Under the pieces are notes generated by a model. It searched no databases. It was not told where the DNA came from and saw nothing but the letters and a program-made list of their open reading frames with translations. A stretch of DNA of 60,023 nucleotides, filler included, from Hausera hauseri (lineage: Eukaryota), in NCBI GenBank assembly GCA_046269625.1. It is 11 parts of 11 records of this genome, joined end to end, with 100 filler letters (N's around TTAATTAATTAA, not from the genome) between each part and the next. Parts side by side here need not be neighbours in the genome. Positions count along the whole stretch, not along the records: positions 12,929 to 18,296 come from JBJURY010269508.1; positions 18,397 to 24,209 come from JBJURY010184861.1; 9 more parts are not named here. The stretch is one strand, 5' to 3'. Position 1 is the stretch's first letter, and the number at the start of each line of letters is the position of its first letter. Shown piece by piece: positions 1-60,023 of the stretch. The translations under genes and the position numbers were made by a program.

Positions 1-3000
1 GTCCAACTGCGATTGGACTCAGCAAGAATTTTGAGAGACGTTTTCATTGTGCGGTGAAAGCGTTCGAGAAGGCCGTTCGATTGGGGATGATATGGTGATG
101 TGTGAATGTGATTAATTCCCAAGCGATTGACAAGAGCTTTAAACAGGTTGGATTCGAACTGTGGACCTTGGTCCAAGATGATGTGTCGAGGTGATCCAAA
201 CCTGCTGATCCAAGTGCGGATAAAAACGTCTGCGATGGTTTTTGTGTTGGTGTTCCGAAACGGGACAGCTTCTGGCCATCGCGAGGAACGATCCATCATT
301 GTAAGGATGAACTGATGACCGTTGTCTAAGGGTAATGGACCTACGAGGTCAATGTGTACAGATTTGAAACGAGACTTGCAGGGAAAATGACATAGTGGTG
401 GCTTTAAGTGCTTAGTAACTTTGTATTTTTGGCATGCCACACACTGCCTAACTCATGCCTGCACGTCAGAGCGCATCGATGGCCATGCTACTTGGCGTTG
501 TAGGAGGCGAAAACTGGCTTTGGCACCAGGGTGATGCAACGAATGTACGCTGTGGAACGCTTCCTTTTGAAGCGACTCAGAAAGAATTATTTTTGGATTA
601 TTAGGTTTGGAGTTGTCAAAGGCCACGCCGTCGATGGTTTTGCAAGATTTAAAAAATTTCAGGATGACAGGAGGTGGATGGTTTTTGCCGAAGTATGGAT
701 TGAGGAAAAATTGGAGTGAAATCAATTGAGCTGACCGATCGGGACAAAAAGTCGGCTACTAAATTGTCAACTCCGTTTAAATGCTCAACTTGAAAACTAA
801 ATGTTGACAAATATGATATTTGCCTCTCCTGACATGGAGAAGGCGATTTCATGCTGAGAATTTGGCGCAAGAACTTGTGGTCCGTTTGTATTGTGAAAGT
901 TCTTGCAGTTAGCAAATGTTTGAAGTGTTTTACGGCAAGGACCATTACAAGCAATTCTCAGTGAAAGGTGGAATATCTTTGCTCCTGTGCTGTGAATTTT
1001 CGAGAAAAGAATTCCAATGGCTCATGAGATCCATTTTTAACTTGATGGAGGACAGCACCTGCAGCTGTTGTGGATGCATCGGTGGTTAAGAAAAGTTCTG
1101 CATAAGAGTCTGGATAGGCCAGGATTTTCACAGTTTTCAAAATGTCTTTGAGGAGATCGAAGGCACTGACTAGATCGGCGGTCCATTGAATAGGCTGTTT
1201 CTTCTTGCCAGAGCTTAGTGATGCAACTGGAGCGGTTAGAGTGGAGCAATGTGGAACGTATTTATGAATAAAGTGCAAGGTTCCAAGGAAAGAACGCATT
1301 TCTGTTGATGTACGTGGTAGTTGTATATTTTTGAGCTGTGTGATGTGGTCTGGCTGAGGTGAGTGTCCGGAGGAGCTAATAACATGTCCTAGGAAATTCA
1401 CCTTATGGTGAAAGAAAGAGCACTTGAAGAAATTGATTTGCAGGTTGTCTTGGTGCAGGCGTTGAAAGATGAAACGTAGGTGTTCAGAGTGTTGATTCGC
1501 GGAAGATAATACAATTAAGATGTCATTAATATAGGGGTAGGCGAAGTCTAAGCCTGATAGGACTGTATCGATATGCCTTTGGAAGGTCTGGGACGCGCTG
1601 CGGAGTCCAAAAGCATGAAGAGGTATTCGAAAAGGCCGAAAGGTGCAATTACAGCCGTTTTTGGAATGTCTGCTGATGCCACCGGAATTTGGTGGTATGC
1701 TTTGTGTAGATCAATGCAGGCAAAAATGGTCGCACCACGGAGCCTGTGAAGGATATCGTTGATTAATGGTAAAGGGTGGGCATCCATTGTTGTTATAGTG
1801 TTAAGTTGCCGGTAATTACCGCATGGGCGAAAGGTGCCATCTTTTTTGGAACCACATGCAGTGGTGAAGACCAAGGGGATTTGGATCTTCTGATTATTGC
1901 TGATTTTTCCAGTTTGAGAAACTTAGCTTCCACTGCCTGTCTGCGGCGAGGTGATAGCGGATGGACCTTTTGACGTATTGGTCTTTGACGTGCTATTACT
2001 ATGTGATGGAAGGTGGATTGAGGTGGTACGAATAATTTGTCCTTTTGAAACAGACGCGAGCAGCAAGATGAAATGTATTGCTGTAAATCAGATAACAACG
2101 ATGAAAAGTTGTCCGATGGTGTCGATGCCTCGTGACTGGATGCAATTGAGGTATGAGTTGTAGACGAGGTGTTTTGACTGGGTGGTATTTGGTGTAGGAT
2201 GTTCGTGTTGCAGATGGTGTCGGCAGCTGTGCTATCAGTAATAGGTGCCACGCAGTTGGCAATATCGTATTTGTCGCCGTAGTAAAAATTTCTGTATAAT
2301 GAGCGATTATAAAAATAATTCAAATCGGAAGTCGTTTTTTTCATTATTGACTTGCTGGAGGCGATCGCTCGGGCGGTCACCGAAATGCTGCTAATTTGCT
2401 TAATATTATTTCCGCTCTTTAAGAAACATCATTTGCAATCTACAAGTAAATTGTTGTGGGACAGAAAGTCTGAATCCAATATAGGTGTGCGTACATTGGC
2501 TATTGTAAATTTCCATGCGAATGAGTTTGGGAAGTGTGGTAGAGTAAATGTTAATGTGGGAACTCCAAAAATTTGTAAAGGTTCACCGGACGCAGTGAAA
2601 ATTTGCGTTTTTGAAGCAAAATTGTTTTGGGTGTGTTGTGTTAGTGGCAGTAAAGAGATTGCTGCACCAGTGTCTATAAGAAAGTTAATGTTTTGCAATA
2701 TGTTGGTATGACGACTGCTGCTTCCAACGTGAATGCAGAAAAGGAAATGTGTCGGCTATTTTTTTGCAGGTTGTTGCCTTTGCTAGAACTTTCTGTGTGT
2801 CCTAGCGGCGAAATTCGTTTTTTTTTAACTCGTGAGTTTGGCCTACTGTTTTGTGTGAACTAAGTAGTGTTGGTCTTATTGCATGTGTTGTAGGTACATC
2901 CAAGTAGGCATTTTTGTGCTTTTGTGCCAAATTTCGAGTGATAGATGCAAACAGTGTTGCTTGTATTAAAATCGGGGAGTAAAATTTACAACCATGCAGC

Positions 3001-3272
3001 ATTTCTAAGTATTAATACCAAATTTGTTATGGTAGTAGCAAATAGACGACCACGCGGGCGAGGGCGATCGTCTTTGTCGTTAATTAAATACATTAGGGGA
3101 AGCTGCCCTAGAAAAATCGCGTCGAGGCAGCGTTAACTCATTTAATTTCTTATTTATGTTGTTAATTGTCTTTTGTAAGATTTCATTTTCCGTGCGTAAT
3201 TGCGCAATTTGTTGCTGCAGCATTGCATTTTCTTGTTGTTGGTCTTTTGTTAATGATGTAGAGATAGATGGT
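1..3272 (-). mobile_element. Decayed Ty3/Gypsy LTR retrotransposon, CsRn1-like (gag 3' part, protease, RT, RNase H, integrase)
   Basis: Fragmented ORFs in Gypsy order: CHCC knuckles at 2896-3040, protease FLIDTGAAISLLP, RT (SPWSSPLHVVPKK, FACIDLHKAYHQIPV, PFGLFEYL), RNase H (TTDASTTAAGAVL, TDHK) and integrase zinc domain (HSLHHPG...). Many frameshifts. Confidence 0.95.
2429..2698 (-). pseudogene. pol: Retropepsin-like aspartic protease of Gypsy pol
   Basis: FLIDTGA catalytic motif and PILDSDFL (ILG-x-DFL-like) motif. Confidence 0.9.
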
Positions 3273-3820
3273 GCTGTGTGAGTGCAGAGAGCTGGTTGAC
3301 CCCACTAAAGTTCCCACTGAGGTCCAACATGTTTCCACAGGCATCAGTTGGCCTGTTATCATTTCAGCCAGGAGTTCAGATACTGATGGAAAGGCACCCG
3401 AGTCATTAAAAGCCCTGCTCCATACTGCTCCACCATCCAGCTCTGCTGAATCAATCATTCGTGCTATGGGAGATGTGCTGTCAAAGATGGACAAGGGATC
3501 AGGGGAAAACAGTGGTTACCGCCGACTTCGAGTGTTCTCTGGCACCTTACCTACACCGGCAGGGGAAGAAGTGTTGGAGCATTGGCTGGAGCAAGCTCAC
3601 CTGATGGTCGAAGAGAGCGACTGCTCCAACAAAGAAAAACGAAGTTGCATAATGGAATGTCTTAGAGGACCTGCTCTTGCTATCATAAAGGCAATACGAA
3701 CAGCTGACGCAGATGTTTCCCCTTCTAAGTGCCTGGATGCTATTGAGAGTGCTTTTGACACAGCAGAATCAGGTGAAGACCTGTACTTTAAGTTTTGACT
3801 ACTGCAACAGGAGAAAGACG
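3268..3820 (+). pseudogene. gag: PNMA (paraneoplastic Ma)-type Gypsy gag fragment, opposite strand to the surrounding element
   Basis: YRRLRVFSG...GEE-x2-EHWLEQAHLMV...MECLRGPAL...CLDAIESAF...ESGEDLYFKF, then a stop and LLQQEKDE. This is a typical PNMA/Gypsy capsid pattern. Confidence 0.85.
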
Positions 3821-3958
3821 AAATACAGAATGGCGAACTCACAGACTTCGTTTTCTTCTATATCTTTCAAATCGCCTGCATCGCCATCTGTTGTTGACAA
3901 TTGTAACTAATTTCGCAAGTTTGTCTGCCTGCAAATTTACTGTTGTCCCAAGCATATT

Positions 3959-4058: not shown

Positions 4059-5030
4059 TGGTGCCTTTGCTAGGACTTGTCGTGTGTCCTAACGGTGAAG
4101 TCAATTTTTTGTAGTGGGTGAGTTTGGCCCACTGTGTTGTGTGAATTTAGTAGTGTTGGTTTTATTGTGTGTTGCAGTTACAGCCAGGTAGGCATTTGTG
4201 TGCCTTTGTGCCAAATTTTGAGTGATAGATGCAAACGATGTTGCTTGTATTGAAATCAGGGGAGTAAAATTTACAACCGATGCAGCATTTTTGAGCATTG
4301 TTACCAAATTTGCTATGATAATAGCAAATAGATGACCGCGCGAGCGACGGCGACCGTCTTTGACGTTGATTAAATACATTAGGGGACGCAGCCCTGGAAA
4401 ACCCCCGTCGAGGCAGCGTTAATTCATTTAATTTTTCGTTTATGTTGTTAATTATCTTCTGTAACTTTTAATTTTCCGTGCGCAATTGCGCAATTTGTTG
4501 CTGCAGCATTGCATTTTGTTGTTGTTGGTCTGTTGTTAATGCTGTAGAGACAGTTGGTATTGTTTTTGAGTGCAGTACTTCATATGCCTTGTCTGCCAAT
4601 TCGCCTAGCTTGTCCAGAGCCGTGGAGTCTTCGACCACGGTAAGCAAAGCTCTTATTTGAAGGAGCAATGCATTTAAAAAATAGCGACGAATAAGTTTTA
4701 GACTATTCTCAGATGTTACGCAAAGGGTGTTAAGGTGAGACAAGGATATGCGTAAGAGTTCAGAAGGCTTCTGAAAGCCCATGGCGTTATCGTCGAAAAA
4801 CCTTTAAATGATGTAGTCGATGGACGGCTCAGTAAGCTTAAGAACGGCATTATAAAGTTGAGTATATGGATCTGTGTGATGAAGGATATCGATGATATTA
4901 GTAATTTTAGTTTTGATGGAAGCTGGTAAGTGGAAAAAAAAGCTGTTTGCTTTGGAAAAAAAAGTCGACGACGTTTTGTGACTGGAGCCAGAATTGGTGC
5001 AGTTTTAGCCAAGTTTAGTAGAGTTTTGGC
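4059..5030 (-). pseudogene. gag: gag of a second CsRn1-like Gypsy copy
   Basis: QKPSELLR...FLNAL..QIRALL...LDKLGELADK, with tandem CHCC knuckles at 4180-4326. Nucleotide sequence aligns with 2770-3272. Confidence 0.85.
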
Positions 5031-5399
5031 TGTCGAAAAAGTATTTGGTGCAGGGTGAATGAGTGAGGAGAATGTGTTGTGTCTAGGTGCTTGAAGCGCT
5101 TTGTTTGGTTAAGTGAATGACAGGGATCTGTGGTTTGGTGAGTTTGTCTGTGGTATCAATTGTGGGTGATGAATCCATGCCAGCACGGATACGGAAATGA
5201 ATGTGAAGGTAGACAAGTTTTAGCAGGTTGGAGGGCTCCAGCGAAAGGCACTATCGATCCATTGTGTGTTATGTAGAAGTCAGAGGAGTGGAGTAAGGTA
5301 GAGATGAAGTTGTGAATGGCCGCGGCGTGTAGGTGCAATGCTGTGCATGTATGAATATATTTGTTATTTAATTAAAGAAAGATGGAGTAGTGAGAAGTG

Positions 5400-5517
5400 A
5401 TACGTCCGGGGACGTGTTGTGGGGCGGCAGCGAAAGGTGTCGTTCGACCCAATGGTGCAGGTTGGGCGGCCGGGACCTCAGCCTCGCCGCGGCGGGTTTT
5501 AAATTTCAGGGTAAACA
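5400..5517 (-). repeat. Probable short LTR (5418-5517) and degenerate tRNA-Trp-like PBS (5400-5417) upstream of gag
   Basis: The minus strand reads TGT...CCGCCCCACA, resembling the LTR ends at 6368 and 34847. It is followed by ACACGTCCCCGGACGTAT, a weak match to the Trp PBS TGGTGACCCCGACGTGAT. Confidence 0.45.
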
Positions 5518-6367
5518 AACTCCCCCTCCAAGGTCCTTTCCTTCTTCTCCCAGTGGACCCAATGAATTTCTTTTCGGATTTTGATCGATAGTCACAGTAT
5601 TGGAGAAAAATAAGGTCATTGATTATGTCAAAAGGATAAATAGACTCTATGGAACAATAGCTGTTTTCCAAATCTTTATTATTTCTGTAGAGCCAATTGC
5701 TATAAATTTCATTGTTTACCGTAGATTCAATTATTGAAGGTTGCAATACATTATACAACAAACCTTTTTGAGCGGTTTTATCATTTTTACTTGGCACCGA
5801 TTCAATTCATTTCGAGATTTCGGTGGTGTGAACATATTTGCAGTCTGAAAAGCGTCATAGCCATAGAAATTTGAGAGATTGTTGTTTCCCGAACAAAACT
5901 GTGGTGGTTCTTGATGTGGGAATCCAATTTCATGATCTCTGAATTAATTGGCCTCGATTTGTTGTTGACCCATCATAATAATACTATTTGGATGAGGATT
6001 TTCGTCATTTAATACAGATGATGGTGGTGCACCTTGGTGCTGCTGCTGCTGGATTTGCATCTGGGCATTAACATTTGGTGCTGCTAAATGCTGATAGTTT
6101 ATTTGCTGTACATTGAGTTGTGCATCGACGAACGTATTGTGTACCTAAGGAAATGGATATTTTTATGTTATACATTCAAATTTGTCTGACAAATGACAGC
6201 TGGTCCATGAAATTGAACGGTAATATTCTTTACCAACAACGCGGAATTGTTCGGAAATTGCTGGGTTGTCGAACTGCAGAACGAGATATCAAAATAGTAA
6301 ACATTGAGATAATTCAAAAATATGGTCACCAACGTTTGAATAAAAGATATCGGCGGTTTATAGAACC

Positions 6368-8007
6368 TGCGAGGTGGGAGATCGGGACCGACTATGGGCA
6401 CGATGCGTCGGCAACGGAGGCCTGGCCGTGCCCAACCAAATGGGTCAAAGGGCACCGGCGGCCATGGGCACCGCATCATCCCCCTGGCAAAGTAAAAACT
6501 ACAAAGGGTAAAAGAGATAGAAAGAAAAACCACAAAAAGAAAAAGTGTCTGTGTCAGCTGGTCTTAGTGTAAATAAGACGTTGGGTACCTTCTACTGATT
6601 TTTCCTGCTATACTTGCTGAATATGATTGCGTGTTTTGTCTTTTTGCGGTGTGCTTGCTTGCAGAGTTTGAAGTTAGGGAAGAAAATTATCAGGTTTTGT
6701 TGTAAGTGTTGTGTCGTGCAAAGATGAGTCAGAATAAAGAGAAGGAGAAGGTGAACGAAGAAGAGAGTTTGTTAAAGACGAAGGAATGATTAAAGGTGTG
6801 GTGGCAGATAAAGGAAAAGAGAAAGAAGTTGAAGTAGAAGCCGGAATGAAATTGTGTGAAAGAGTGGAAGTGGAAGATTAAGCAGCGGTAGTGGTAGAGA
6901 AAGGAAGAAAGATGGGGATAGAAGTAAATAAAAGAGGAAGTCTCGAAGTGGAAGTAAAAGGGGTAGAAGACGATGTGTGAGGAGAAAGGGAGGAAGAAAG
7001 CGCCGAAGATGAGGAAGGTGTGGAAAGAGAAGGAGAGAGAGAGAGAGAGAAAAACTGCGGAAGTACAAGGCGAAAGAGAGCAAGAAGATGAAGAAGACAA
7101 AGGAAAGTAGTTGGGAGGTGTCATGCAAGAGGTAGGAATGATGAAAGGTGTAAATAGAGAGATTGGTGAAGTCAAAACGGTGTTTGATGGAGGAGGTATT
7201 GCAAGAGGAGAAAGCAGGTTGTTACCAGGGAAAGGAGGAGGTGTTGGAAAGCTTGAAGGTGCAAAATCGGGTGGAGAGAAAGAGGCTAAATTGTGAGAAA
7301 TGGAAGTGGAAGTTTTGGGAGAAAACGTAGGGGAAAATGGATTAAGACATTGAGCAGAAATGGAAGGTGAATTGTTGGATTGCTGCGCGTCGTATAAAGA
7401 TGTAGGTGGAGAAGTGACATCGATGAAAGACGTATCGTCGATGAAGAAAGCCGGCTTAGCGTTGTTGATGTGAACTGTTACTTCTTTGTCGTCTTTGAGA
7501 ATTATGATGTTGTGGGAGTATAAGCGAATTACTTTGTAAGGGCCGAGATACTGAAGTTGAAAACTACACGGCGTTTGATTCTTTAGTCAAACAAACTTGG
7601 CAGTATATAAATCGTCGGGTATGTAAGGTTTATTTCCGTGTAACAATCTGCAAAATGAGTCTTTTCTGTTCTCAACAAAGTGTCTCTGTGCCGCTTGTAT
7701 GGTTTTGTCTGTAGGAGTATTGTCCAGCTCATTCAGCTAGAATATAATATGATGGAAGTGTCAAATAATGCTCCTGCAGGTAAACAGCCTGTAGAAGTAG
7801 ATGGTGTGTTTCGCCAGCCAAGAAGAACGTACGGAAGGAGTGTAGTTCAACTGCCATTGGACTTAGCAAGGATTTTAAGAGACGTTTTTATCGTTCGGTG
7901 AAAGCGTTCAAGAAGACCATTCGATGGGGGTGATATGGTGACATGTGAATGTGGTTAATTCCCAATCGATTGACAAGAGCTTTAAACAGGTTGGATTCGA
8001 ACTGTGG
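6368..8007 (-). mobile_element. 3' part of a CsRn1-like Gypsy copy (integrase C-terminus, low-complexity tail, PPT, 3' LTR)
   Basis: Collinear with 34847-36500. Contains the integrase GPY motif, a purine-rich tail on the plus strand, PPT AGGGGGATGA and LTR TGCGG...TCGCA at 6368-6475. Confidence 0.9.
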
Positions 8008-9476: not shown

Positions 9477-12400
9477 TGAGTGAATGAGTGTGTAACAATG
9501 GACAATTGATATAGTCAAATGAAATGAGATACAGCAGCGATATTGATTTTCTCTAACACTACAACATACAAATTTGATGATTCTCAAAAAAACGTCTCAA
9601 ACTCGACACCAGATCGAATTAACATTTAACGTTTCGCATCTTTGAAGCATAACAGAATGAGAAATACATACATGCGATTCGGCACAAATGGAGAGAAAGT
9701 GTGAGAGACGTTTAAGTATCCAAATCCAACATTCAGTACATGCACACCGTCTCAAAAATACACACACACACCAATCCGAGAATCATTGATGCTACACCAT
9801 GGCAAATTGTCTCACCGTCGAATATCGAGCAGGCACTATTCGATTCGACTGCAGCAGCAACAGCAGCATGGCAGAAAGAAAAAACCATATCTGAAGCTGC
9901 TGTGTTTACTCTACGTTGCTAGCAACAGCAGCAGTATCAACAGAAATCGATTGATACCTGATATTAAATTACCATGGAGATAAAATCATGTTTAAACATC
10001 GAACTGTAGCAATTCTGTAGCAATAACAACAACAACAATAATATTAATATAACGACGAATATTAACGCAATTATGACAGACTACTCGAAAACGAAAGTCA
10101 TAAAACTCACCTAGTTCTATTCAACAACAAAAAAATGGAATGCGAAATGCATAATTCGAATGGCTGGTACCAAACGGTAGCTAAATAACTAGTTCAGTCA
10201 ATTGCTTCTCACTACTACTATTCGAGTGTTACTTGGTTTGTTTACGTACGCTTGACTCGCAGCCGGTGTGTCCTCACATCGAGTACCACTACGAAAACCA
10301 ATATCGGTACATGACTCTCTACACGACTCAGGTGAGTTCGATTCACACCTAAATCACACTCCATTGCCAGCGAATGGTCTCTGCTATCACTGTTTGCTCG
10401 ACACACGCTTTGCTAAATAAACAGCTCGAATTCACCACGCTGCTTATTGATCGTCGAGTTAGAGTTGGTGTGTATGTGTGTTGTCTGCTACGCTACCCCA
10501 TTCGGTTCAGCAGGCCGAACTGAGTCAGTAGTTCCTATTCGATAGACGTTGTGCATCCAGTATGAAGGCCAGACTTGTCGTTTCTATGCGCACTAAATCA
10601 CTGACTGCTCGATTAGTTATGTTTTCGTTGCACTGCAACAACAAATAAATTTGGAACCGATTTTCGATTTACAAATGCTCGTATACAATCGATATTTATT
10701 TGGTAATGAGTTTGTTGAGTGGTGCAACAAATTCTTGATTTTTGACTTTTGTCAGTGCTTCTTTATTCGTTCGTGTCATTCACAGTTTGATTGTGTTGAA
10801 TGTTGTTTGTTGTAAATTTCAATATCACTATCAATGTAGATAATGGAACGTAAACATTAAGATACCATCAGACAAGAAAGGTACGATTAATAATAAATGT
10901 CGTCACATCCACTGTTTATTGAAATTTATTGCTAGACGTCCAGCAAGGTTCATTCAATTGGAAATAGGTTGATACGTCGATTTTAGACCGATGCTTCTCA
11001 TGTAAAATGTCCAACAAATTAATCTTTTTATTAGTGTCCTTAAACATCAATATCCTTCGTTTGGCTTCTTCATTTAACTCATGAAAACTCGATGCCTGTT
11101 GAAACAGAAAATTTAAATTTTGAATTTTCATATTGACCAATAAAACATTTCAAAATTGAAAAACACATTTGAATTTTACAAAACGCCCTCATTTGAATGT
11201 GTATTCAACAGTGGAAATTCAAATTAATAGACAGATTTAAATCAAATAATCTTATCGATTTGTTTGATATACCAAGTGTGTTTCTACGTATATTCAATTA
11301 GTAAAATGTACCTATGGTCATTTGAACTCGTTAATATGCTCAAAGATCTCATCAATGACCTTGATGGTATGACACTGTTTACTTACGTTGGTGTCGATGA
11401 TTGGCTGGTTAATGAAGTTATTCCTGTGGTAATACTATACAGCATGAATGGCAACCAGTTTTTAGTTAAAAGGATTACATAAAACTCTGGAGGTAGACAA
11501 AACACTTTTAGTTAGGTTCAGTCAATTTTCGCGTATTTCTCGTAGTAGTAGAATCATTTCTGCGCGAAGATTCTACGTCTGCACATGTAGTGACTACCAA
11601 TCTTCTTGGTTACCTCATTACAGTCATACATTCAGGTAATTACCAATGCAAAAAATTTTAGTGAGTGGAACAACCACCATTTAGTGCTACCAGCAACCTG
11701 AAGTTACGGTTACTTCACATCAACAAATATTGAAATTAAATCCATGATGATAACAATGTAAGTAGTAAACAAGAAGATCGAGCGAACTATATGATCGATT
11801 TACCCGACCTTTATATTTTTCCTTTTCCTATGCGAACAATTTAAAATTTTCGTTGTTTTAATATCTAAAAAGGCTTTCTTTATTGGCCATAATTCACTTT
11901 CAATCGTTGAACGTTATTATTAAAAATATTTACTCGTTTGTCACTTCAAGCCATTTTTGGGGAAATATAATTGGAAATTTTATCTCATTGCTATTTCAAC
12001 CAGTTCAGAGGGAAGACACTTTAATTATCTCATTTTGTTTTCGATTTGGAACGATTTCCTTTACTATTTCTATTGATGCACTTTCTTTTAGTGCATTGGA
12101 AATTGTAATTGTTAATAAAAGTGTTGCCGCGAAATTTGACATGAAATTTTGTATTTTGAAAATTCAATATCAGACATGCATAATTTTGATGTTTGGAACA
12201 GAATAAAAGAATCGTCATTTGATTATATGAAAATATTGCTGGAAAAGAGAATGATGTGTTGTTTCCCATCCTTAATTCGATTTTTTATCAGAGCAAGCAG
12301 ATAAGTGGAAAGGTCATTTTATTAAAATCAAAACCAATATATGAATATTCTCATTTGAAAATGTCAAATGATGGGTTGTTAACCGTTGGTATGGTTTGAT

Positions 12401-12928
12401 TTCAGATTCTGTAAACACAAAAATAATGATCTGTTTTGTTTTCTAATGGTCAGTCAAAACTATCATATAAAATGTGTAGAAGTTTTGATCAAATTTGTCA
12501 AAGGAAAGATGGTTGATGGTAAACGGTATACCGACATATTCTATTCGATAAAATGGTTGACAATTCAGATAATACCGTTTCAGATAATATTGTCAACAAC
12601 AAGATGGTTTTATCAGTTTAACTGATAAGATTCGATTAGAAAATTGGATCAGATTACTTGGAGATGTTGATTGTGATGTCGGAAAATTGTGTACCCGCTG
12701 TAAATGGTCAACCTTCTAATGATATTAGTAGTGTGAAAATGTGCTTTCTGCCCCACCCCGGGGGGGAGGTCGATAAATCGATATTGCACATGTGCCGATC
12801 GATAGTGCACCCGGAGCACTATCGATCCNNNNNNNNNNNNNNNNNNNNNNNNNNNNNNNNNNNNNNNNNNNNTTAATTAATTAANNNNNNNNNNNNNNNN
12901 NNNNNNNNNNNNNNNNNNNNNNNNNNNN

Positions 12929-13705
12929 TAGTAACTGGACTGATCGTTGCACGTTATATCCGGCGAACATACACCCGTACAAACAATGATCCAACTCTGA
13001 GCGGACTTGTCTACTATCTTTTCCTCTTATGAGCTGTTCTCTTTTTAAGCCGGTTACTTCTTCATATGATTCTTGGAGATGTTTCCGGAGGTTTATGATT
13101 GTAGAGTATATTTCAATCCCATCCCTTTCTTTAATAGATACTTCAATGGGTATTCCATATCCATCATCTCCTCTGCCGCAATTTATCGCGATGATTCTTA
13201 TATTACAACCGTCTTGGATTAGCCTAGATGACTGACGATGTTTATCCTTTTCTACCTCAGTTGGAATTTGTTCAAATTCTATGGCTGGCAAGCGTAGGTT
13301 CCAATCTTCTCTGTAGATTTCTTTCGTTTATTTTAAATGTGCTGAACCGATATTGATGCCCTTCATTGGAGTTCCAGTTTTGGTTTTCCATTCTATAATA
13401 TATTTCTCCGTCAGCTAGGTGGATGTATATATCCTGAATTTTGGCTGGCCGATTTCGGTTTAATTCCTTTAGGGAGTATGCTTTGTCTTGATGATTTTCG
13501 CGCATTGCGTAAAGGTAAATTGTACAATTCTCTGTAATGCCTTTTAGATCATTGGGGATCTCGCTAATTTTTGGGATTTCGATATAGGTTTTTGCTTGTA
13601 AGACTTCGGTTATCCGTCTATACATAGACTTCGATTTCGGAATAAATACTGTGGCTTGTTCCCGCAGATATTCGTAAATGCTAATTCGGCTATCCGTACT
13701 TACTA
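12929..13705 (-). pseudogene. Unknown N-terminal domain plus REX4/ISG20-like DEDDh exonuclease fold (cut by contig end)
   Basis: IIAINCG...EVSI...G.EIYSTII......YEEVTGLKREQL...QVRSEL...L.G.MFAGYNV follows the REX4 pattern VALDCE...RVSIV...G...YD..V.P...YRT.VSGI...L...VQ..V..LL.GRILVGH. The N-terminal domain is homologous to 21917-22350. Confidence 0.7.
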
Positions 13706-13805
13706 TTCTAAAAAATAAAAAATAAGGGTCAATCCTATAACAAAGTATTGTTCTAAATCTGAACCAATTTTTTGTTAGATGGTGGAATAACCCAACCTGT
13801 AATTG

Positions 13806-15215
13806 TCAGGTAATTCCATTATTGATTTCGTTCTGTGGTACCATAATCCTTAATTCCCTCTCGGTGATTTTAATACGCTTATTACAACAGTTTTTGGTAA
13901 TCAATTGACAAAACGCAATAAAAGTTGTGACAGCAAACGTTGACGTTCCAATAATCGATATTGGGTTGTCCATTTAGTTAGGTCTTTCGTTTTAGCGGTA
14001 GTCGTAGTTTCGTCTTCCATTTCATCGTTAGTTAGTGGCTTCGTTAAGACAATTTTGTTTATAGTTCGTACCGTAAACGTTCTACTTTGTTTATTCTCTG
14101 CACCTATTTCTATTACGTAGTCTGTTTTGGGTTTTAAGTAGGTGCAATTAATTCGATGGCTTCCTTTAGCCAGTGTCACTTTTTGATTATTGTGTAACGT
14201 TCGGCAGCTCATTTTTACGCCGCAATTCATTGCTTCCTCCACAACACATTTTATTTCACGTTGTTGTGTCCAATATTTTACAGAAATTATTTCTAGATTC
14301 TTCTGAGGTAATCCACTTGTTTGAAAGACTCTGTTGGAAGTTGAAGTAGTCGTATTCGTTTTTGTAGTCGTAATTCTACTTGTTGCCATTTTGGGCGGAA
14401 TTCCCGAAACTAGATTTTCCAATTGATAACATCCTAGGTAAATGCTCGGCTGGTTTGGTCGAATTTCATATAAATCTAACCGAATTCAATATTTATATCT
14501 CTGGGGTAACTTACAACACCTATTCGGCCTTTCGACGTCAATTTGACAGTATTATTGATTGTGAGCCGCCTTGTTCTCCCTTATGAATTGAACCGTAATT
14601 ACTCGTCCTTTAATTAACCGTCCCTTTGTGTTTATTTGGATGCAGTTGTCCTTTGGGTTTTCCGCTATACTAGCCATATTTTCTTCTAGCATCCGTTTTA
14701 ACGGTTTGACGGACTGGAGCAGGTCTTCTAGCTCTATATTAAGATAGTATCCATAAGTTCGTGGTATAACTATATGTTAATTTAATTTTATTTCTGCGTG
14801 TACATTATTACAGTTCGGCAAATATGAACGATAACTGAGAGCGTAAGAATGTTTGTATTCTACGTTGTAGCAAATTGTATCATCTGACTCGAATTTACAA
14901 TCAAATTCGACTTGGCTAGATAGGTCATAAAATAATATTTGGATTTGCCCCTCATATGGTCCTGGTAACCTAAACCCGGCACATGGGGCCTCTGGTGAAA
15001 AATGATCTAATTTTATTGCTCGTAAAAATTTCTCGTCTTTTTGTTCTGATTTGTGTTCGGGTGCTTCCTCCCTTGGCAGTGAACGATTTAATCCGCTTTT
15101 CATGATCCCATATATATCGCTCATCGAAGTTTCATCGACCCACCATTAGGCGTTAGACTTAGGAGTTAGGACAGCAATCAATGATAAGGCTACTTTTATC
15201 TGCGCGTAAGATACT
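13806..15215 (-). pseudogene. Type I membrane protein: signal peptide, three FN3-like Cys modules, Thr-rich stalks, TM
   Basis: YAQIKVALSLIAVLTPKSNA lies in frame after the integrase GPY. The FN3 signature is LKPKTDYVIEIGAEN...FTVRT. After a frameshift near 13975 the frame reads PISIIGTSTFAVTTFIAFCQLI-TKNCCNKRIK (TM plus basic/Cys tail). Confidence 0.7.
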
Positions 15216-15299
15216 GGTCTAGTGATGACTGACAAAGTCCTTGTTTCTTGCTGTCTTAGACTGTAGTGTTTACCTGGTCTTATATCTGTTTTAACTACT

Positions 15300-17900
15300 C
15301 TTTGAATCGATACTACTTCTTCTTTGCCGTTTTTATTAACATAGACTGTGGTTGGCGTTGTGCGGACGATTTCATATGGCCCTCTTCCAGTACGGGTTAA
15401 TTTCAATGATGTACCTTTCTTCGCGACCGGATAATGTATATAAACCCAGTTCCCTTTTTCCAGATCATGAAGCTTAGCCTTTTTATCATATTGTTTTTTA
15501 AATTGTTCCTGGTATTCAAGTGATAATATTTTTGCAACTTCCTAACACTTTTGCAATCTTGCCTGTAAGACTTCGGCAAGGTTTTGCTCTAGAGCCTCGA
15601 GACTCTTCGTACGGCACTTTACCTAGATCTGTAGGTAAGATTGATTCTCGTCCATACATAAAAAAGAATGGTCTAAATCCTGTTGCTGGATGTGGGGTCG
15701 TATTGATTGCGAACTGTGTCCCTTCTAAGAATTTGTCCCAACCCTTTTGGTCCCTAGTCACTACTGTTGATAGTATACGAATGACTGTTGCGTTCATTCG
15801 TTCGACCATTCCATTACATTGGGGTAGTACGCGGTAGTGGTTAAACGTTTTATTTTGAATATCTTGGTAATCTGTTTGAATAATTCACTTGTGAAGTTCC
15901 TTCCTCTATCCGTTAAAATTTAGTACGGCGGTCCTTATCTTCAGATGATTTTCCTTATCACTGCCTCGGCTAAAGTTTTTGCCTTTTGGTCTAATAGTGC
16001 CACTAGTTCGACAAAGTGCGTTAATCGATCCACGCATGTTAGAATATATCTGTTATTTTTATGAGTTTTAGGTAAGGATCCCACTATATTCATAGACATA
16101 GCTTGCTTCGGCCTGTCTGGTACGCTCATGGGCTTTAATTCGGCTACGTAGACTTTCGTTTTCTTTTGCTTTGTTGCACAAATTTGGCAAGCACTTATTT
16201 AATTTTTCACATCGATATAAATGCTTGGCCAATAGTATTTATTTAGTATCCTTTCGCAGGTCTTTTCCCAAGACATGTGTCCAGCTAAATATGAATCATG
16301 TTCGGCCATAAGTACTTCAATGCGTAATCCTTTTGGAATAACTATTAATCTTCTTCCCTTTCGCTCGTAATATAGGATGTTATCTTGGTTCGATGCGTGA
16401 TATTTATGTCCGTACTTCTGTAGATGCTTTTTCAGTTGTCGTCCTTTGGGCATTTTGCCGTTTTGTGCAAACTCAATAATTTGCTGAATAACCTTATCTT
16501 TAGCTTGCTCTGCAGTGATCCTGATCGTTTTATCCAGGATTAGGGTTCTTTGACGTTCAGTTATTTGTTCGAGTTACGTTTTCTCCGCTGAGTAATCCGA
16601 CTTGTTTTTGTCTTTAACCTTGATAATGCGTTGGCGTCGACGTGCTTATTACCTGGTTTGTATTGGAATTCAATGTTATATCGTCAGATTTCCTCGATCC
16701 AGCGGTTTAATTTACATGTTGGGTTACTAGCTCGTCCTCTCAATGTCGTAGTCGCTTTGTGGTCGGTCACTATTATACTCATTTGTTCATAGACATAGAC
16801 ATTAAAGTGTCATAGTGCTTCCTTTACGGCTAATGTTTATAATCTGGTAACCGAGTAATTCTTTTCTGCTTTCTTTAACGAGCGTCCTCCATAGGATATT
16901 GGGTGTTCTACTTCTTTATCTCCTCGTTTCTGAGCTAATTCATATCCTATACCTTCTTTACTTGCATCTGTTTTATGATGCTATCATTACGTCGTAGGTT
17001 CAAATCAGGGTATCTTAGAACTGGTTCGCCTGTCAAAATTTTCTTCATTTCATCGAATGCTTTTTGCTTCACTTCCGTCCATCTCCACTTAGTCCCTTTT
17101 TTGAGTAGGCGATATCGTGGTGCGTTAATTTTCGAATTGGCCGGTACGTAAGTGGCATAATACCCACATAGGTCTAACCAGTGTCTCAGCTCTTTTTGAT
17201 TCTGCGGTTCCATACAATCGGATATTTTATTTAGCAGGAATTTATCCGGTTTTGATCCTCCATCTCAGACTATGTGTCCGAGGTACAATACTGCGTTCTG
17301 TGCCCATTTACATTTCTTTGGATTTAGTTTCAACCCTGCTTGTTCCAGTCACATGAGTGTATTTTCAATGTCCCTTAAGTGTTCTTCTTCTGTTTTTGAT
17401 GCTATCATTACGTCGTCCAGATACGCGAAAACATGATCAAGTCTCATGAAAATCTTATTCATCATTCTAGTAAAGATAGCTGGTCCTGTGGTGATGCCGA
17501 AAGGCATAACATTAAATTCGTATACGCCATCGTGTGTTTTAAACGCTGTCTGATATCGATCTTCTTCTTCGATTTCCACTTGCCAGTATCCCGACTGTAA
17601 GTCAAGAGTGGTAAACCATTTCGTTCCCGATAGTCTGTCTAAAGTTTTCTTTACCGACGGTGAGGGAAACCCGTCTTTCATCATAAGCGTGTTTAATGCC
17701 CTATAATCTATACAAAATCGATGTTTCGTGGTTCCTTGATAAGTAGCTTGGTACCATGATAAGTAGCTTGGTCGAATTATATCGGCCTTTAACATTCGCT
17801 CTGCCTCTTTAGTTATTTCGGGTCTCAATGAATGGAGAGGTGTGTACCATTTGGGCATTTTCTGCTCTTCTGGATCGATTTCGTCATTAGAGCCGGGTTT
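15300..17900 (-). pseudogene. pol: Gypsy pol (RT-RNase H-integrase), frameshifted
   Basis: YLDD; HDSYLAGH...YYWPSI; VERMNATV...W...FAINTTPHPATGFRPFFFMYGRE; GPYEI. Confidence 0.95.
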
Positions 17901-18411
17901 TTTTCTTATTGGAATTGTTAATCTCAGGGCTTTTGATCTACCTATGTCTTCTTTATTTTGTGCAATTATTGAACAGTATTTACATAGTAATTCGTAGAAC
18001 TTGCAATACGCCTCAGGAGGAAATTTGGTTTAGACGTGAGGTGGAAATTCTGCACATTTGTATGGTTTTTCCTCTGTTGTTACTGCCGATACTCTGCAAG
18101 TGTGACCTAAAGTAGTGTTAGCGTGCAATCTTACGGGGGTTGGTGCATTGTTCACTAATCTGATATGTATGCGTTCCGTCGCTACTCAAGATAAGATATT
18201 GCTAAACATGAGGTTTGGGTCGATATTCTCTTGAGGTTCAAAATATACTGGCAGATCTTCGTCTTGACGAATCTGTGCGAAAATTATCATTTCGGTNNNN
18301 NNNNNNNNNNNNNNNNNNNNNNNNNNNNNNNNNNNNNNNNTTAATTAATTAANNNNNNNNNNNNNNNNNNNNNNNNNNNNNNNNNNNNNNNNNNNNCCAG
18401 TCCCAAAAACA

Positions 18412-20330
18412 GTGAAAGGAGTTCGTAAATTTCTCGGTCTTACAGGATATTATAGAAAATTTGTTAAAAATTATCAACAAATAGCTTCTCCTCTACACTC
18501 ATTACTACAAGAAAACTCCAAACTTGTGTGGACGCAGGAATGTCAAAAAGCATACCAACAACTAAAAGATAGTCTGTTAGCCCCACCAATATTGGCTTAT
18601 CCAAATATGTCTAAACCATATTTTTTAGCCACAGACGCAAGTAAAGTTGGAATAGGAGTTGTTTTATCTCAGAAGGATGATCAAGGACAAGAACATCCTA
18701 TATCATTTGGAGGACGGAAACTGAGAAAACACGAGAAAAATTATTCTACAATTGAGAGAGAATTACTCGCAATCGTATACGCCTTAGAACAGTACGGACA
18801 GTATCTGTCGGAAACTAAACCAATTATCATCTATACTGACCATAAGCCATTACAATGGCTAAAGAACCATAAGAATCCAAATAGTCGTTTGATGAAATGG
18901 GCAATGCTACTCCAACCTTACGATTTAAAGTTCGAATATAAAACTGGTAAGGCCAATGCAAATGCAGACTATATGTCTAGAATACCTGAAGATATTGATC
19001 AAGAGGAAGAAATAACGGATAAACCAAGTGTAATAGCAGCTATTTGGAGTATTACAGAATACGAAAAATCGTTGCAGCAGAAACAACGGAGTGATGAACA
19101 AATAAAACAAATTATGGAATATCTCCAGAAGAAAATTACGCCAAAAGATACTGATCTCCATACTCACTTGATAAAGTTTGCTGAAAATTATCAAATGAAA
19201 GATGGTATACTATATTATAATTACAAAGGAAAACTGGTCGTTGTCGTCCCCCAAGAAGATGTAAAATTATTGTTAACACAATACCATGATGGCATGTTGG
19301 GAGGACATCAGTCGAAGAAGCGAACACTAGGCAGACTGAGGAGAAAATATTACTGGCATAAAATGCCTAAAGATGTAGAAGAATGGTGCAGAAGTTGCCC
19401 CATTTGTGCAACACGGAAGAATACCGGCTCAAAAATTAAGGTCCCTTTGAAACCATTAGAATGTCCACCAGCTCCTATGGAGTTCTCAGCAATGGACATC
19501 TTAGGACCACTGCCAATGACGATAAATGGAAATAAGTATATGTTGGTTTTTGTTGACTTATTTTCCAGATGGCCAGTAGTAGTTCCGATACCAGACCAAA
19601 AAGCACAGACTATTGCACAAGCATTTGTTGAAGAGATTGTATTTAATTATGGAGCACCTACTAAACTATTGACGGACCAAGCTCCAAATTTCACTGGAGA
19701 AGTAATGGCTGAGATATCGAAAATATTTCAAATATTACAATTAAAAACTACCCCATATCATCTACAAACCGATGGAGCGGTCGAGCGATTTAATGAAGTT
19801 CTGATTAACATGTTGGCGACAATAGTTGGGGGACGACAGGATGATTGGGATGAATGTATTGGACCCTGTTTGTTCGCCATTGGGAACGCGATTTATCCTG
19901 CAACCCGGGAAACTCCATTTTATTTAATGTGTCTTGGAGATGCTCACATGCCCGTTGATTTGGATTTCAGGATATCAGCTTCACACTTGGAGGATGTAAA
20001 ATATCAAGAATTACTGGAGGAAAAATTGGGTTATGTATGGAGTTTGGCTTCGCAGAATATGAAAAGATGTCGGAAAGAATGCAAAGATGGATGTGATGAG
20101 GGAGCCAAAAGTCATAGCTTTAAACCTGGGGATAAAATTGTGTTGCATGCACCTTTGTGTAGGAAGGGAAGGACTCCGAAATTGGATAGACCATGTGGGG
20201 GGTCCATATATGATTCAAAAGGTGGATGAAACAAGTGTATATTTAAACAGGAATAAAAGAAACGAGAAGGATCCTATAAAGATTCATGTGAATCGATGTA
20301 GACTAGCACCGTTGGAATCACAAATAAGAA
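18412..20330 (+). CDS. pol: Gypsy Pol: RT connection, RNase H, integrase (HHCC, DDE, GPY)
   Basis: FLGLTGYYRKFV, ATDAS..GIGVVL, YSTIERELLA, YTDHKPL, HDGMLGGH...CRSCPIC, MDILGPLP, TDQAPNF, DGAVERFN. A 1-nt frameshift in the G-run near 20197-20202 precedes GPY. Confidence 0.96.
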
Positions 20331-21637
20331 ATGGAGATCCAGGTTTGTCATTGGTGGTGGCATTTGTGATGTTGAGTCTGATGACTTGTATATCGGCCCG
20401 GGAATTGGAGCCGATATATCGTGGGGTATAGGTCGGAAAATACCCCTGCATACGAGTATTTGGAAGTCGAAATTTGACTATCAACGATTATGTCTATATG
20501 CATATATCGAGGGTATCCACATCACAGAGGGTGATCGCTGGATCTTGTGATTTGTATTCGAAACGTTCTAGTCACATCTGCTGCGGTTTGTCATGTTGGA
20601 TGTCATATGGAGTTCAATATGCTCTTACTGGAATAATAGACGAGAAATGGCGCACATCTTGTTGCTCATTTCCGGGTGTGATATACTGCTTTGGTAAGCC
20701 AGATTTCCTTGTAACATTCTGCACAAAGATTGTGAAAAATGGACCATGTGTAACGTCTGAGCCAGATTCCCCGGTGGCCAGGCATCGAACAATTAAATAT
20801 GCAATGTTTAATAAGACCAATACGATGGAGTGTAGACCTTTTTATCGGGATCCTCATCTATGTTGCCCCATAGCCTTTGATAGGGAGTATATGATATGGT
20901 GTTGGACAAAATTGGGAGCGAATGGTGACTGGAGATAATCGGATGGGTTGATGGCTCCAGAAGTGGTGGTGAAATCACCAAGGGTAATAATAACCTTAAA
21001 AAGGAGAGTGACTACTCCGCTGACACTGCCCACTGTAGCGGCTAGTCCAACTATAGAAGCTGAGAAGAATATCAGGGAATTGGATATAATTGTCCAACCA
21101 ACAACTCACTCACTGGTTATTGCAGTGTCCAATTTAAAAACCACAAACGTGGAATTTGAATGTTGCTTTTACCATGGGAGAATGAGTGAGGGTGTCATAA
21201 CTCCAGAGGAGCCCACATCGGCTTGTGTGTTCCTGGGGAACGATACGAATTATAAGATAGCTGTAGCCGAACTTGATAAAGAAGGACAAATTTTGCAGAC
21301 AGTTTGTCGTATAGGAAAGACGTTAAAGCAAGTGGTTTTAACGACAACAAAAATTATAGAAATAACAAATGTGCAAAATCATGATGACAACGAGAATAAA
21401 TATTTTTGGATACTCGTTGTACTGTGTATCTTCTTGGTGTTATTAGCCATACCTTTACCTTTGATATTTTATTTCTTGAAAATGAGACAACGACGGCGTG
21501 GAATCGGGGAAATATTGAATCAATTAAGGATGTTAAGAGAGGACTCCCAAGAATCGTTAGCGGACATAGGCGCGCCTTGTTCACAAGAACAACGGCGAGT
21601 TGAAAAAAGTGGGCAAGCCGGGGAGCTTGCCGATTAG
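20330..21637 (+). pseudogene. Type I membrane protein: signal peptide, three FN3-like Cys modules, Thr-rich stalks, TM, basic cytoplasmic tail
   Basis: ORFs 20087-20431, 20474-20938 and 20948-21637 share one frame. Signal-like GLSLVVAFVMLSLMTCISA, FN3-like FLGNDTNYKIAVAE, and TM YFWILVVLCIFLVLLAIPLPLIFYFL followed by KMRQRRR. Confidence 0.8.
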
Positions 21638-21916
21638 AAGCAGCTAGTACGGCCGCTAGAATGTGGACTGACTGGGGAATTTGCCAGTCAAGAGTGGCAG
21701 TCCCTACCGCTTGGAGGTATAACTGTGTGTCTATGCACGGGAATTCGGGACCAGGCCGCAAAATTCCTAGCGACCTCTACTTGTGGACAATCAAAATGTA
21801 AAGATATTATTATATGTAGAAAGTTTTGGCCGCTGTTGATATTGATTTTTTTGGTCGGCGAAGGGTCCGAACAGGTCCAGTGACCGAGCATTTTTTGACG
21901 CAGTATTGTTGCCAGT

Positions 21917-23041
21917 TTGTTGGCGTCCAGCAGGAATTGCGTCTGCTATAAAGGGGCCCATATGATGCCAAATCACCTAAAGGGACAAACTGTGGATCGG
22001 AGAGGTGGCCTTATAATTAAGTTACAAGCATGTTCTACTATGTTGTCTGATTTGATCGATCTCACAAGAGGAGTTATAGCCATCTGCGTTTCAGTGTCGA
22101 ATGGAACTATTCAGTTGAGAGGCGGGGTTCTCTCTAATGGAATCACTGATGCAATTGACATTCCGTCCTCAACCACGATTGGATTGGATGAGAGGTTCTT
22201 CGAAAATGTGGAGGTAACTATCAGGATTGTAAATAAAATTCATCCGGTCTTATATATCGAGGTTGTCAGGCAGGAGAATGTTTTCCATAATGAGTCAAGG
22301 CAACTCAATTGCCCAATGTCAATTCCTAGTGATTCTTTACTGGGGAGGGGTGCATCGTTTGTAAGATCGACTCAAATACGGAAGGAGGATATGGTAATTG
22401 TGACTACTGGTTCCGCGTATGTTATGCAGCCAGTTCGCAAAATGGAGGTGACACTGATGGAACTAGCCATTATGAATTTGGATGGTGAAGTTATTTTCGA
22501 TAGAATATTGTGCCCACGTGACAGAATGGATAATTGTAGTAGTCATGTGGCCGGCTTAAGAGAGCCGGACATAATGGGACGGACAGATCTCTTGCAAACT
22601 TGCTCTCTGATTGAAACTCATCTTATCGGAGAAATTATCGTTGGAATGAATGTATTTTGTACTCTTAATTGCATTCTTGGATGCAGTCATCATTTTGTCT
22701 TGGGCATGGGAGATCTACTTTATCATGAGAGGGCCAACCCGAGACAGGAGTTTGATTCCTAATACATTTTGACTGCATTCAATAATGGTGCTTGCCCTCG
22801 GGGAACAAAGGATGGAGCGGGGTCAATGCTGGATATATATAGTTCAATTCCGAAATATAAAGATGAAAACCTAATGGATAATATATCATTGACAGGTACC
22901 CATGTGACTGATTTGGAAGTCAAAGAAAACCCTGGGAGGACAGGGGATTTCGCGAGTGGCAAACGGCTTTTTCAGATGTCTTTGATAGGAAGTGGCGAAA
23001 TGGAATTGTCATTGACGAAAGGACCCAAGAAAATGAAATAA
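21917..23041 (+). pseudogene. Unknown N-terminal domain plus REX4/ISG20-like DEDDh exonuclease fold
   Basis: ELAIMNLDGEVIFDRILCP...DNCSSHVAGLRE.DI...L.GEIIVGMNV...MGDL (IRDT-like)...TKDGAGSMLDIY (SVEDARA.M.LY-like). One in-frame stop at 22760-22762. Confidence 0.78.
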
Positions 23042-23844
23042 GGGAGATCTGACTTGGCAGATTCCTCAACTCAAGTTACAATCGATTTGACAAGGAACAT
23101 AAGAAAGTCAATTTCGTCTAAAGAGACAATTGCACTAAAAAGAGGGATTGAAGTGGGGGATCAGTGGCTGGAAATGGATGCAGTGCGGAGACGGCTTCAT
23201 CTGGGGAGGGAGGTGTCGAACATGTGAGTCGGGTGTCAATTGACTGACTGACCGGATTGATTGATCTTTTATATTGTTTTGACCAAAGTTTAATTTTCAT
23301 CTAATTGTTTTGTTGTTTTGGAAATCGAGTGTGAATTTTTGTGATTTTTGTCATGTGAAAGAGGGGTATACAAACCTCAACATTTTGTCACAATACACAA
23401 TATTCTCTTCATGTCTACTTATGCTCTTCGTGATTGTAAGTGTGTTTTTTTATTCATTTTCATTTTATTTTGGTTATCATTAATTAGATAATATTAAAGG
23501 ATTAGTGATTTTATTCTTTTGTTGTACGTACAAGAAATTAATCTTTGGTAGTAGGTGTAAGTAAATATAAAATCAAGACCCTTTTTCTTTTAGCGTCCAT
23601 AAAGTCGCTGATTTTAAATTCATTGCAAGTAAGGGAGAGACCGCCAGTATTGCCTCCTGGCGTCGTACTCACACATTAAGATTAATTAAGAACTATAAAT
23701 AAGTCATATCAATCCACAGATTGCTACTCCAGAATTTAAGTAAAGATAAGTTTGAGGTGCATTGACCCAGACTTGTATTTGATTGATTTTAGGCTTGGTG
23801 AGTAAAATCTCCAAGCTAACTTATAACAACCTTAAACTTATCAT

Positions 23845-23861
23845 TGGTGCCCCGAGTGAGG
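23845..23861 (+). promoter_or_regulatory. Primer-binding site, elongator tRNA-Met
   Basis: TGGTGCCCCGAGTGAGG lies one nt after the LTR end CA. It matches the complement of the animal elongator tRNA-Met 3' end (TGGTGCCCCGTGTGAGG) with one mismatch. Confidence 0.85.
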
Positions 23862-23964
23862 AGGCACACTGGCGTCGTATTCTTTACGTAAGAGACACGC
23901 TATTAATATAAATTCGTGCACTGATTCGGTACGGAGTAGCCCCGAATTAGACGAAAATCTTTAG

Positions 23965-24209
23965 TTGGAAAATCAGAATCCCGAAATGTCCTCAGAACTT
24001 GGAACCAGTTTAGGTAGTAATCTAAACAGTACGATGGTATTACCCATGGAAAAATACGAGGCGAAGCCGGACCAAGATTACGCAGAGTTCATTATGCAAT
24101 ACGAAATGTATTCCGAAAGTTATGGATGGACGGATGAGCATAGGATCAAACGGCTCCCTTTACATCTTAAAGGCATAGCACTTAGTGCTTATACCCAAAT
24201 AAAAGAAGA
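23965..24209 (+). CDS. gag: Gypsy gag N-terminus (cut by contig end)
   Basis: KYEAKPDQDYAEFIMQYEMYSESYGWTDEHRIKRLPLHLKGIALSAY is a Ty3-type capsid pattern, about 100 nt downstream of the PBS. Confidence 0.88.
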
Positions 24210-48085: not shown

Positions 48086-48201
48086 TTGTTTGTCTGTCAA
48101 TCGACAATCGTACGACGACGATGTTTGTTTATAGTTGATGAGCTCGATGATGCTTTACGGCGTTTTCTCAACTATTACCAGCGAATTGTTTTTTGACTGA
48201 T

Positions 48202-48899: not shown

Positions 48900-48999
48900 N
48901 NNNNNNNNNNNNNNNNNNNNNNNNNNNNNNNNNNNNNNNNNNNTTAATTAATTAANNNNNNNNNNNNNNNNNNNNNNNNNNNNNNNNNNNNNNNNNNNN

Positions 49000-59481: not shown

Positions 59482-59489
59482 TCCACGAC

Positions 59490-60017: not shown

Positions 60018-60023
60018 CTTCTG

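Follow-up and report, generated by a model that had tools for sequence, protein, structure and literature searches.

A putative fibronectin type III membrane protein behind the integrase in two Ty3/gypsy elements of Hausera hauseri and their relatives

Two Ty3/gypsy retrotransposon copies are the subject of this analysis of a stretch of DNA from the Hausera hauseri assembly GCA_046269625.1 (the window; 60,023 nucleotides, filler included). We refer to the contig at 12929-18296 as element B and to the next contig, at 18397-24209, as element A. In both, the integrase is followed by coding sequence for a predicted type I membrane protein, whose third ectodomain module is, by profile and structural model, a fibronectin type III (FN3) fold, and then by a separate open reading frame (ORF) with a DEDDh exonuclease fold. 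Element B is a decayed copy (eight homologous segments, together 1630 codons, have 16 stops, and the frame changes six times). The peptides that a first-pass annotation of this DNA had quoted from it were all recovered, on the minus strand and where that annotation had placed them.

The membrane protein behind the integrase

With Pfam alone, the cargo of element B (the sequence behind its integrase) reached no better than E 0.14 for fn3 and gave no exonuclease match. The A and B ectodomains had no significant match to each other in direct BLASTP, and their global alignment reached z 3.2 after the bounds had been chosen by hand. Relatives were therefore needed, and a HMMER search of 1.84 billion proteins supplied two: P0126, an intact natural protein of 479 aa aligned over 407 of the 413 query residues (35%, E 9e-56), and P0127, which matches from module 3 through the anchor to the tail (E 3e-22). 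The remaining match from this search, P0128, is repetitive sequence and was dropped as a repeat artefact. Word-index protein searches with the cargo of B (among longer proteins) and of A returned no matches, and nothing was found in viral contig scans or in a metagenome scan with the cargo alignment.

All features of element B lie on the minus strand. A stop-free frame leads from the integrase C-terminus (15541) into a signal-peptide-like segment (15152-15208), beyond which the ectodomain is interrupted by 4 stops. This segment is in frame with the integrase C-terminus and aligns with the N-terminal hydrophobic segment of P0126; in this copy it falls under the hydropathy cut-off of 1.5. The ectodomain begins with two beta-rich modules, each with a cysteine pair and each conserved in P0126. 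Module 1 (14800-14989) is FN3-like by pattern only: the module profile did not find it, and its single-sequence model is unreliable, with a predicted local distance difference test (pLDDT) score of 37. Module 2 (14440-14647) is probably FN3-like; its low-confidence model matched beta-sandwiches, FN3 among them, at Z 4-5 only, and the module profile scored it at a non-significant E of 4.7-6. A stalk rich in threonine and serine follows (14345-14385), in a region where P0126 and P0127 are also threonine-rich, and then module 3 (14030-14311) with its conserved cysteine pair.

The membrane anchor, PISIIGTSTFAVTTFIAFC, lies in another frame (13964) and, together with a short cytoplasmic tail and a natural stop, occupies 13806-13970 (hydropathy 1.59). 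Residues 136-189 of P0127, its anchor and tail, match 13970-13809 at E 0.004, which bears out the earlier claim of a frameshifted transmembrane segment. Both homologs end at the position that matches the stop of element B near 13806, indicating that the membrane protein ends there and that the next ORF is separate.

The fold of module 3 was assigned from an alignment, a profile and a model. A 10-row alignment of the modules keeps two cysteines, a leucine, a near-invariant tyrosine and a final threonine, and the profile made from it found fibronectin at E 0.002 along with Dscam, PTPRF, contactin, PTP-mu and NCAM, nine of ten rows being FN3 proteins. The corresponding module of P0126, 33% identical to module 3 of element B, was modelled with seven strands at pLDDT 88. 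FN3 domains were the top matches of this model in Foldseek (probability 1.00, template-modelling score about 0.55-0.68) and in VIA-align (Z 9.3, root-mean-square deviation 2.5, 76 aligned). The family scores under the Pfam fn3 cut-off. Judged by profile, model and structure matches, module 3 is the FN3 domain that the first-pass annotation had proposed. Cytokine receptors, adhesion proteins and monobodies were tied in the structural matches, so no donor can be named. We also considered the cargo as a viral fusogen (env). This was rejected: module 3 is an FN3 domain by the model, and the fusogen of the relatives lies elsewhere, in the gag-pol interval. No Pfam fusion family matched the post-integrase cargo of A, B or P0126.

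Element A carries the same arrangement on the plus strand. Connection, RNase H and integrase (18397-20226; Pfam, and 35-45% to element B) precede a signal segment, three modules, an anchor and a tail (20342-21637; hydropathy 2.2 and 3.2). Its module 3 belongs to the same FN3 family, having been found by the module profile at E 8e-4 before inclusion (iteration 1). The downstream ORF (21941-23224) has the N-terminal domain described below and a catalytically altered exonuclease fold (metagenome-ORF profile, E 9e-11). It runs into a polypurine tract (23203-23213), a 630-nt TG...CA segment resembling a long terminal repeat (LTR; 23214-23843) and a tRNA-Met-type primer-binding site (23845-23856), and a new gag follows, with matches at 24025-24201. 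The primer-binding site is one mismatch from the tRNA-Met(CAU) 3' ends given in supplement 1 of PMC13524379. Because polypurine tract, LTR-like segment, primer-binding site and gag all stand behind the cargo, the cargo lies inside the element. There is one LTR copy only within the contig, and the succession of LTR-like segment, primer site and gag (23203-24209) may reflect either two tandem elements with a single LTR in common or many copies collapsed into one by the assembly.

Relatives and the downstream reading frame

Relatives were collected by a search with the pol of element A among long proteins, which gave 120 rows, or 128 with cluster members. A hydrophobic segment after the integrase was present in 12 of these 128: the ten closest (43-47% identity), three near-duplicates among them, and two marginal ones. 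A metagenome scan with an alignment of the relatives that have this segment found 80 loci, the six best of which (L001-L006) contain long intact ORFs of 1591-3703 codons. After duplicates had been merged there were 11 distinct relatives with pol, and in all 11 the polyprotein ends in a membrane anchor. When a profile seeded only with module 3 of the element B type was run against 127 proteins, the tails of the relatives and module 3 of element A took the first ten places. The grown profile detected FN3 modules in 9 of the 11 relatives, three of which had been kept out of the profile (L001, L002 and L004; E 7e-14 to 1e-7).

A fusogen is found in relatives as well. Monjiviricetes_fusion was found between gag and protease, within the same ORF, in all six members that span this interval (E 1e-83 to 1e-97). 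The fullest example is P0129, 3735 aa long, with gag, fusogen, protease, reverse transcriptase (RT), RNase H, integrase, signal, two FN3 modules and anchor in succession. Ankyrin repeats and ubiquitin-like domains were also found in relatives; the gag-env interval of L001, L002 and L006 gave no BCL2 match, and neither paired LTRs nor a clear polypurine tract was found in L001-L006. Further features vary between relatives. L001 has a second signal-FN3-anchor cassette between fusogen and protease (residues 1585-1775) besides the post-integrase one, and four polyproteins (L003, L004, P0007 and P0012) have in-frame extra protease-like domains between integrase and signal, with ankyrin repeats in three of the four. 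Accessory ORFs occur in L003 (10906-11517, with a weak ubiquitin-like match, E 0.04) and in L002 (11375-12040, 222 codons, no Pfam match).

Regions of these elements diverge to very different extents. Across five relative pairs, with not every region available in every pair, identity was 24-37% for the FN3 ectodomain and 39-52% for the exonuclease ORF; it was 51-57% for the env fusogen (2 pairs), 74-92% for integrase (4 pairs) and 86-92% for RT (4 pairs).

The downstream ORF is the second shared component. In element B it comprises an N-terminal beta-rich domain (13308-13565) and a DEDDh exonuclease-fold domain of the ISG20/ISG20L2/REXO4 type (12929-13200) that is cut by the contig end. A profile built from eight metagenome ORFs only found 13174-12929 at E 1.2e-6 in a six-frame search of the whole window. 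In the PDB, a profile of the A and B segments matched only ISG20L2 (E 0.0026), ISG20 and SDN1, and a 10-row profile of the exonuclease ORFs matched ISG20L2 at E 4e-23. RNase_T scored above the cut-off in three of the eight relative ORFs. The N-terminal domain, of about 110 residues, is common to all these ORFs by alignment and by the metagenome-ORF profile, including those of A (E 1.5e-4) and B (E 3e-4). It had no match in the PDB or Pfam, and the alignment suggests that it may be a cupin-like barrel.

In element B the acidic residues of motifs I and II of the exonuclease fold are replaced, and motif III lies beyond the contig end; element A is without all five catalytic residues. The DEDDh residues (D-E-D/E-H-D) are kept in five of the eight relative ORFs and absent from the other three, which are intact. 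Since intact relatives also have the inactive form, the loss in B need not be decay. The exonuclease ORF stands behind the polyprotein in all six loci L001-L006. Two loci carry it twice, as an inactive and an active-looking ORF in tandem (L003 7268-10371, L004 6861-9920), and between the two ORFs lie short tandem repeats whose GC-rich core is similar in both loci (L003 8767-8944, L004 8368-8488). The exonuclease fold named in the first-pass annotation thus stands, with the correction that it belongs to a separate ORF whose acidic catalytic residues are lost in both A and B.

Function and origin of the cargo

The role we rank first, at roughly even confidence and by analogy, is that the FN3 membrane protein would serve as the cell-attachment partner of the glycoprotein B (gB)-type fusogen encoded between gag and pol in intact relatives. 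It is ranked first because herpes-type class III fusogens need partners, because entry by gB-type errantiviruses is unexplained and because the surface protein Sas offers a precedent. The second point is made in part of the text of PMC13524379, on the ground that herpes gB needs partner glycoproteins. As to the third, the Drosophila host protein Sas directs vesicles containing Gag-derived Arc capsids to cells expressing Ptp10D, as described in a portion of 10.1101/2022.09.06.506798.

In such a scheme a single polyprotein would continue past the integrase into the type I membrane protein with its FN3 domains. The internal signal would send the ectodomain into the endoplasmic reticulum, and signal and anchor together would give the type I topology by standard membrane-protein biogenesis. 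Signal peptidase, and perhaps also the protease of the element, would free the ectodomain from the integrase, so that the protein would be made in step with capsid, fusogen and enzymes. It could then be displayed on the cell surface and on the membrane enclosing budding particles, in a fixed proportion to Gag, Env and Pol. By binding a host surface protein, the ectodomain would there direct the particle to target cells, for example stem cells or germ cells, leaving the fusogen to act next. The product of the downstream ORF might act on or bind the RNA or DNA ends of the element; in element B this would probably be binding without cutting. That element B itself had a fusogen, we infer from its relatives.

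Several observations weigh against attachment. There is no env-like sequence in the window, where the contigs of A and B do not span the gag-pol interval. L005/P0008 and L006 have the anchor and an ectodomain in which the FN3 profile found nothing, so that some members can do without FN3, and modules 1 and 2 of element B, conserved in P0126, are left with a model at pLDDT 37, Z 4-5 and profile E >3. Five of the six loci L001-L006 come from one metagenome assembly, so they say little about host breadth. The low identity of the ectodomain would suit a receptor-binding or immune-exposed protein and fits relaxed constraint equally.

We regard it as unlikely, though still the strongest competitor, that the FN3 protein is instead a host-modulating decoy, which would imitate a cytokine or adhesion receptor on element-expressing cells and so dampen defence or cell elimination. 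The short tail without a signalling domain would suit this role, as would the ankyrin and ubiquitin-like domains of the relatives, and the idea fits the cargo of Burro elements (see below), which is related to apoptosis and ubiquitin. The top structural matches do include domains of IL-22R1, IFNAR2 and IL-2R beta, but these score level with fibronectin, Dscam, Tie2 and monobodies (Z 8-9.3) and so speak for the generic fold only.

Placed next, and likewise improbable in our estimate, is a mainly structural job, in which signal and anchor fasten the polyprotein end to the membrane, serving processing, assembly or budding, and the ectodomain is carried along as a passenger under weak constraint. 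The anchor, present in 11 of 11 members, is more constant than the ectodomain, which varies in module number, is unrelated in two members and is the most divergent region measured; the extra cassette of L001 between env and protease also accords with this view. However, the FN3 modules keep their cysteine pair, a Leu-x5-Tyr motif and the final threonine across very distant members, and P0126 retains all three modules of element B at 35%, where a passenger would more likely have been lost.

Attachment thus remains the role we favour, and the origin of the cargo is a further question. Element A and element B probably belong to one lineage carrying this layout, going by their sequences. That both window elements have the same cargo layout, as first annotated, was confirmed by the module and exonuclease profiles. 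In a tree on 703 columns of RT, RNase H and integrase (23 rows), A, B and seven relatives fall on one side with support of 96/96, B being deepest; a tree on mostly RT-RNase H (26 rows) places B inside the lineage at 100/99. In both trees its pol thus falls with the env-bearing relatives. Against this, a tree on RT-RNase H with other rows (32 rows) puts B outside the lineage, and B is a long branch. As the rows had also been chosen by likeness to A, the placement is probable and not certain.

Element B could alternatively have captured an FN3 membrane gene and an exonuclease gene alone or by recombination, separately from the lineage of A. Its position as the longest branch and outside the group in the 32-row tree (0 of 200 bootstrap trees with one change) would allow this, as would the lack of a significant BLASTP match between its ectodomain and either A or the polyprotein tails. 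Such a separate capture is nevertheless very improbable given the 703-column tree, and given that B shares its gene order, the in-frame fusion, the module family and a downstream ORF of two domains with the lineage of A. Shared ancestry probably explains the common layout better than two captures. The earlier argument from independent occurrence therefore falls on its first part, the trees pointing to shared ancestry, and holds on its second: intact homologs, six loci with the same order and contig coverage show that the arrangement is no chimera or misassembly.

The coverage comes from run X1, which may be the source sample. In this run, 13,477 contigs match element B and cover 30 of 30 bins, and the cargo part (12929-15400) is matched by 2128 contigs, again over 30 of 30 bins and most of them 80-95% alike. 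By identity, 74 of the 2128 are at ≥99%, 262 at 95-99%, 698 at 90-95% and 1094 below 90%. Many different contigs at each cargo site rule out single-copy host DNA, the outcome that the first-pass annotation had named as refuting; the cargo is multi-copy. Although the window consists of short contigs and no long record spans the element, a reading of the cargo as an artefact of assembly, or as single-copy host DNA beside a pol fragment, is effectively refuted by the in-frame fusion to integrase, the many divergent copies over the cargo, the intact homologs and the six related loci with the same order.

One part of the cargo stood out in the same data. At 13676-13924, which holds the anchor, the tail and the start of the next ORF, summed depth is 10,000-19,000, as in pol, versus 170-1100 in most flanking bins, summed contig depth being no copy number. 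Far more copies at ≥80% were found there than for the ectodomain. The segment may hold a conserved cis-signal, for example for stop-restart coupling or a promoter.

Window setting and relation to known elements

The window is made of 11 short contigs chained by artificial spacer, and 12929-18296 is exactly one contig between two N44-TTAATTAATTAA-N44 spacers. The closeness of A and B is thus due to concatenation, and their adjacency means only that they come from the same assembly. The contig of element B begins inside pol, with gag, env and the 5' LTR beyond it, and stops within the exonuclease ORF, short of the place where element A shows its polypurine tract and LTR-like segment behind the same cargo. 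What it holds has the Ty3/gypsy (Metaviridae) pol order of RT, RNase H and integrase with gypsy-type domains: the protease-RT linker, RT and connection with 4 stops (16998-18296; RVT_1 E 9e-28, and 33-38% to relatives by tblastn along its entire length), RNase H, shifted in frame and with 3 stops (16612-16971; tblastn 33-41% to relatives), and an integrase with zinc finger, core and C-terminal part and two frame changes (15323-16537; Integrase_H2C2 E 1.5e-17, rve E 2e-7). A 29-nt direct repeat occurs in this pol at 16967-16995 and 17389-17416, one copy lying at the frame change between connection and RNase H.

Other mobile elements occupy further parts of the window. Three pieces of another gypsy family (1-3958, 4059-8007 and 34255-38625) share 83-90% mutual identity and a region rich in serine, proline and phenylalanine after the integrase. 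A non-LTR element on the minus strand (56454-60023) carries an endonuclease-RT ORF that stays open for about 900 codons; the ORF upstream of it matches SGNH at E 6e-4. A PNMA-type gag fragment (3268-3798, E 6e-26) and a DDE_1 transposase fragment (40442-40990, E 8e-5) lie on the plus strand. Broken ORFs at 47000-51312 on the minus strand are what we take to be Polinton/Maverick-like capsid and polymerase pieces, Pfam giving nothing for two of them.

The backbone of the relatives resembles two described groups. According to part of PMC6431247, the planarian Burro/GYPSM1 is a giant Ty3/gypsy element of >30 kb with an ORF of 4,873 aa, in which env lies in frame between gag and pol; its env is related to mononegaviral-type fusion glycoproteins, and ankyrin repeats, ubiquitin-like domains and accessory ORFs are also described. 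Compared by description only, the relatives found here share one huge polyprotein, the in-frame env, ankyrin and ubiquitin-like domains and accessory ORFs. They differ in that their ORFs reach up to 3,735 aa and BCL2, BIR and MATH were not detected here, whereas the portion of the PMC6431247 text available names neither a post-integrase FN3 membrane protein nor an exonuclease ORF. Errantiviruses of gag-env-pol order with an env of the herpes simplex virus/gB type occur in Nematoda, Bryozoa and Platyhelminthes (Chary and Hayashi 2026; PMC13524379, in part). The same order and a gB-type env are found in all six relatives spanning the interval, but in what was accessible of the main text of PMC13524379 the words "fibronectin", "exonuclease" and "ankyrin" are absent, this comparison too being by description only.

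Two further systems resemble single components. The rotifer LTR elements Juno and Vesta have a DEDDy exonuclease ORF3 behind pol (PMC5408684, in part). They thus share a separate 3'-5' exonuclease ORF in that position; here, by contrast, the ORF is of the DEDDh ISG20/REXO4 type, has an extra N-terminal domain, stands after the membrane protein and comes in active-looking and inactive forms. Sas, which has FN3 repeats, resembles the FN3 protein as a single-pass surface protein steering Gag-derived capsids to chosen cells. It differs in being a host gene, and serves as an analogy for how the FN3 protein may work, homology aside. A literature search, with Repbase, Grohme 2018 and Sacco 2022 outside its scope, found nothing on a post-integrase FN3 membrane protein or on a DEDDh enzyme/pseudo-enzyme ORF in such elements. 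The gag-env-pol backbone is known, and these two components are apparently new, no paper on them having been found.

The usual view of gypsy elements with an envelope is that they have a single envelope protein. In the lineage described here, a gB-type fusogen is accompanied by a second membrane protein, which is kept at the end of the polyprotein and diverges much more rapidly than the fusogen. The window copy is a fossil that adds a deep branch to this lineage; the intact relatives L001, L002, L006, P0129 and P0126 make the attachment idea testable without a dead copy. More tentatively, and with more doubt than we attach to attachment itself, the cargo could be part of a two-part entry machine, in which a gB-type fusogen and a fast-evolving FN3 attachment protein would come from the same polyprotein, alongside an ISG20-like nuclease and pseudo-nuclease pair countering host RNA defence. 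If true, this would explain how gB-type errantiviruses locate the cells they target. Should the FN3 protein prove to be an attachment factor, it would give a direct handle on how such elements enter cells, and a natural module for vesicle targeting.

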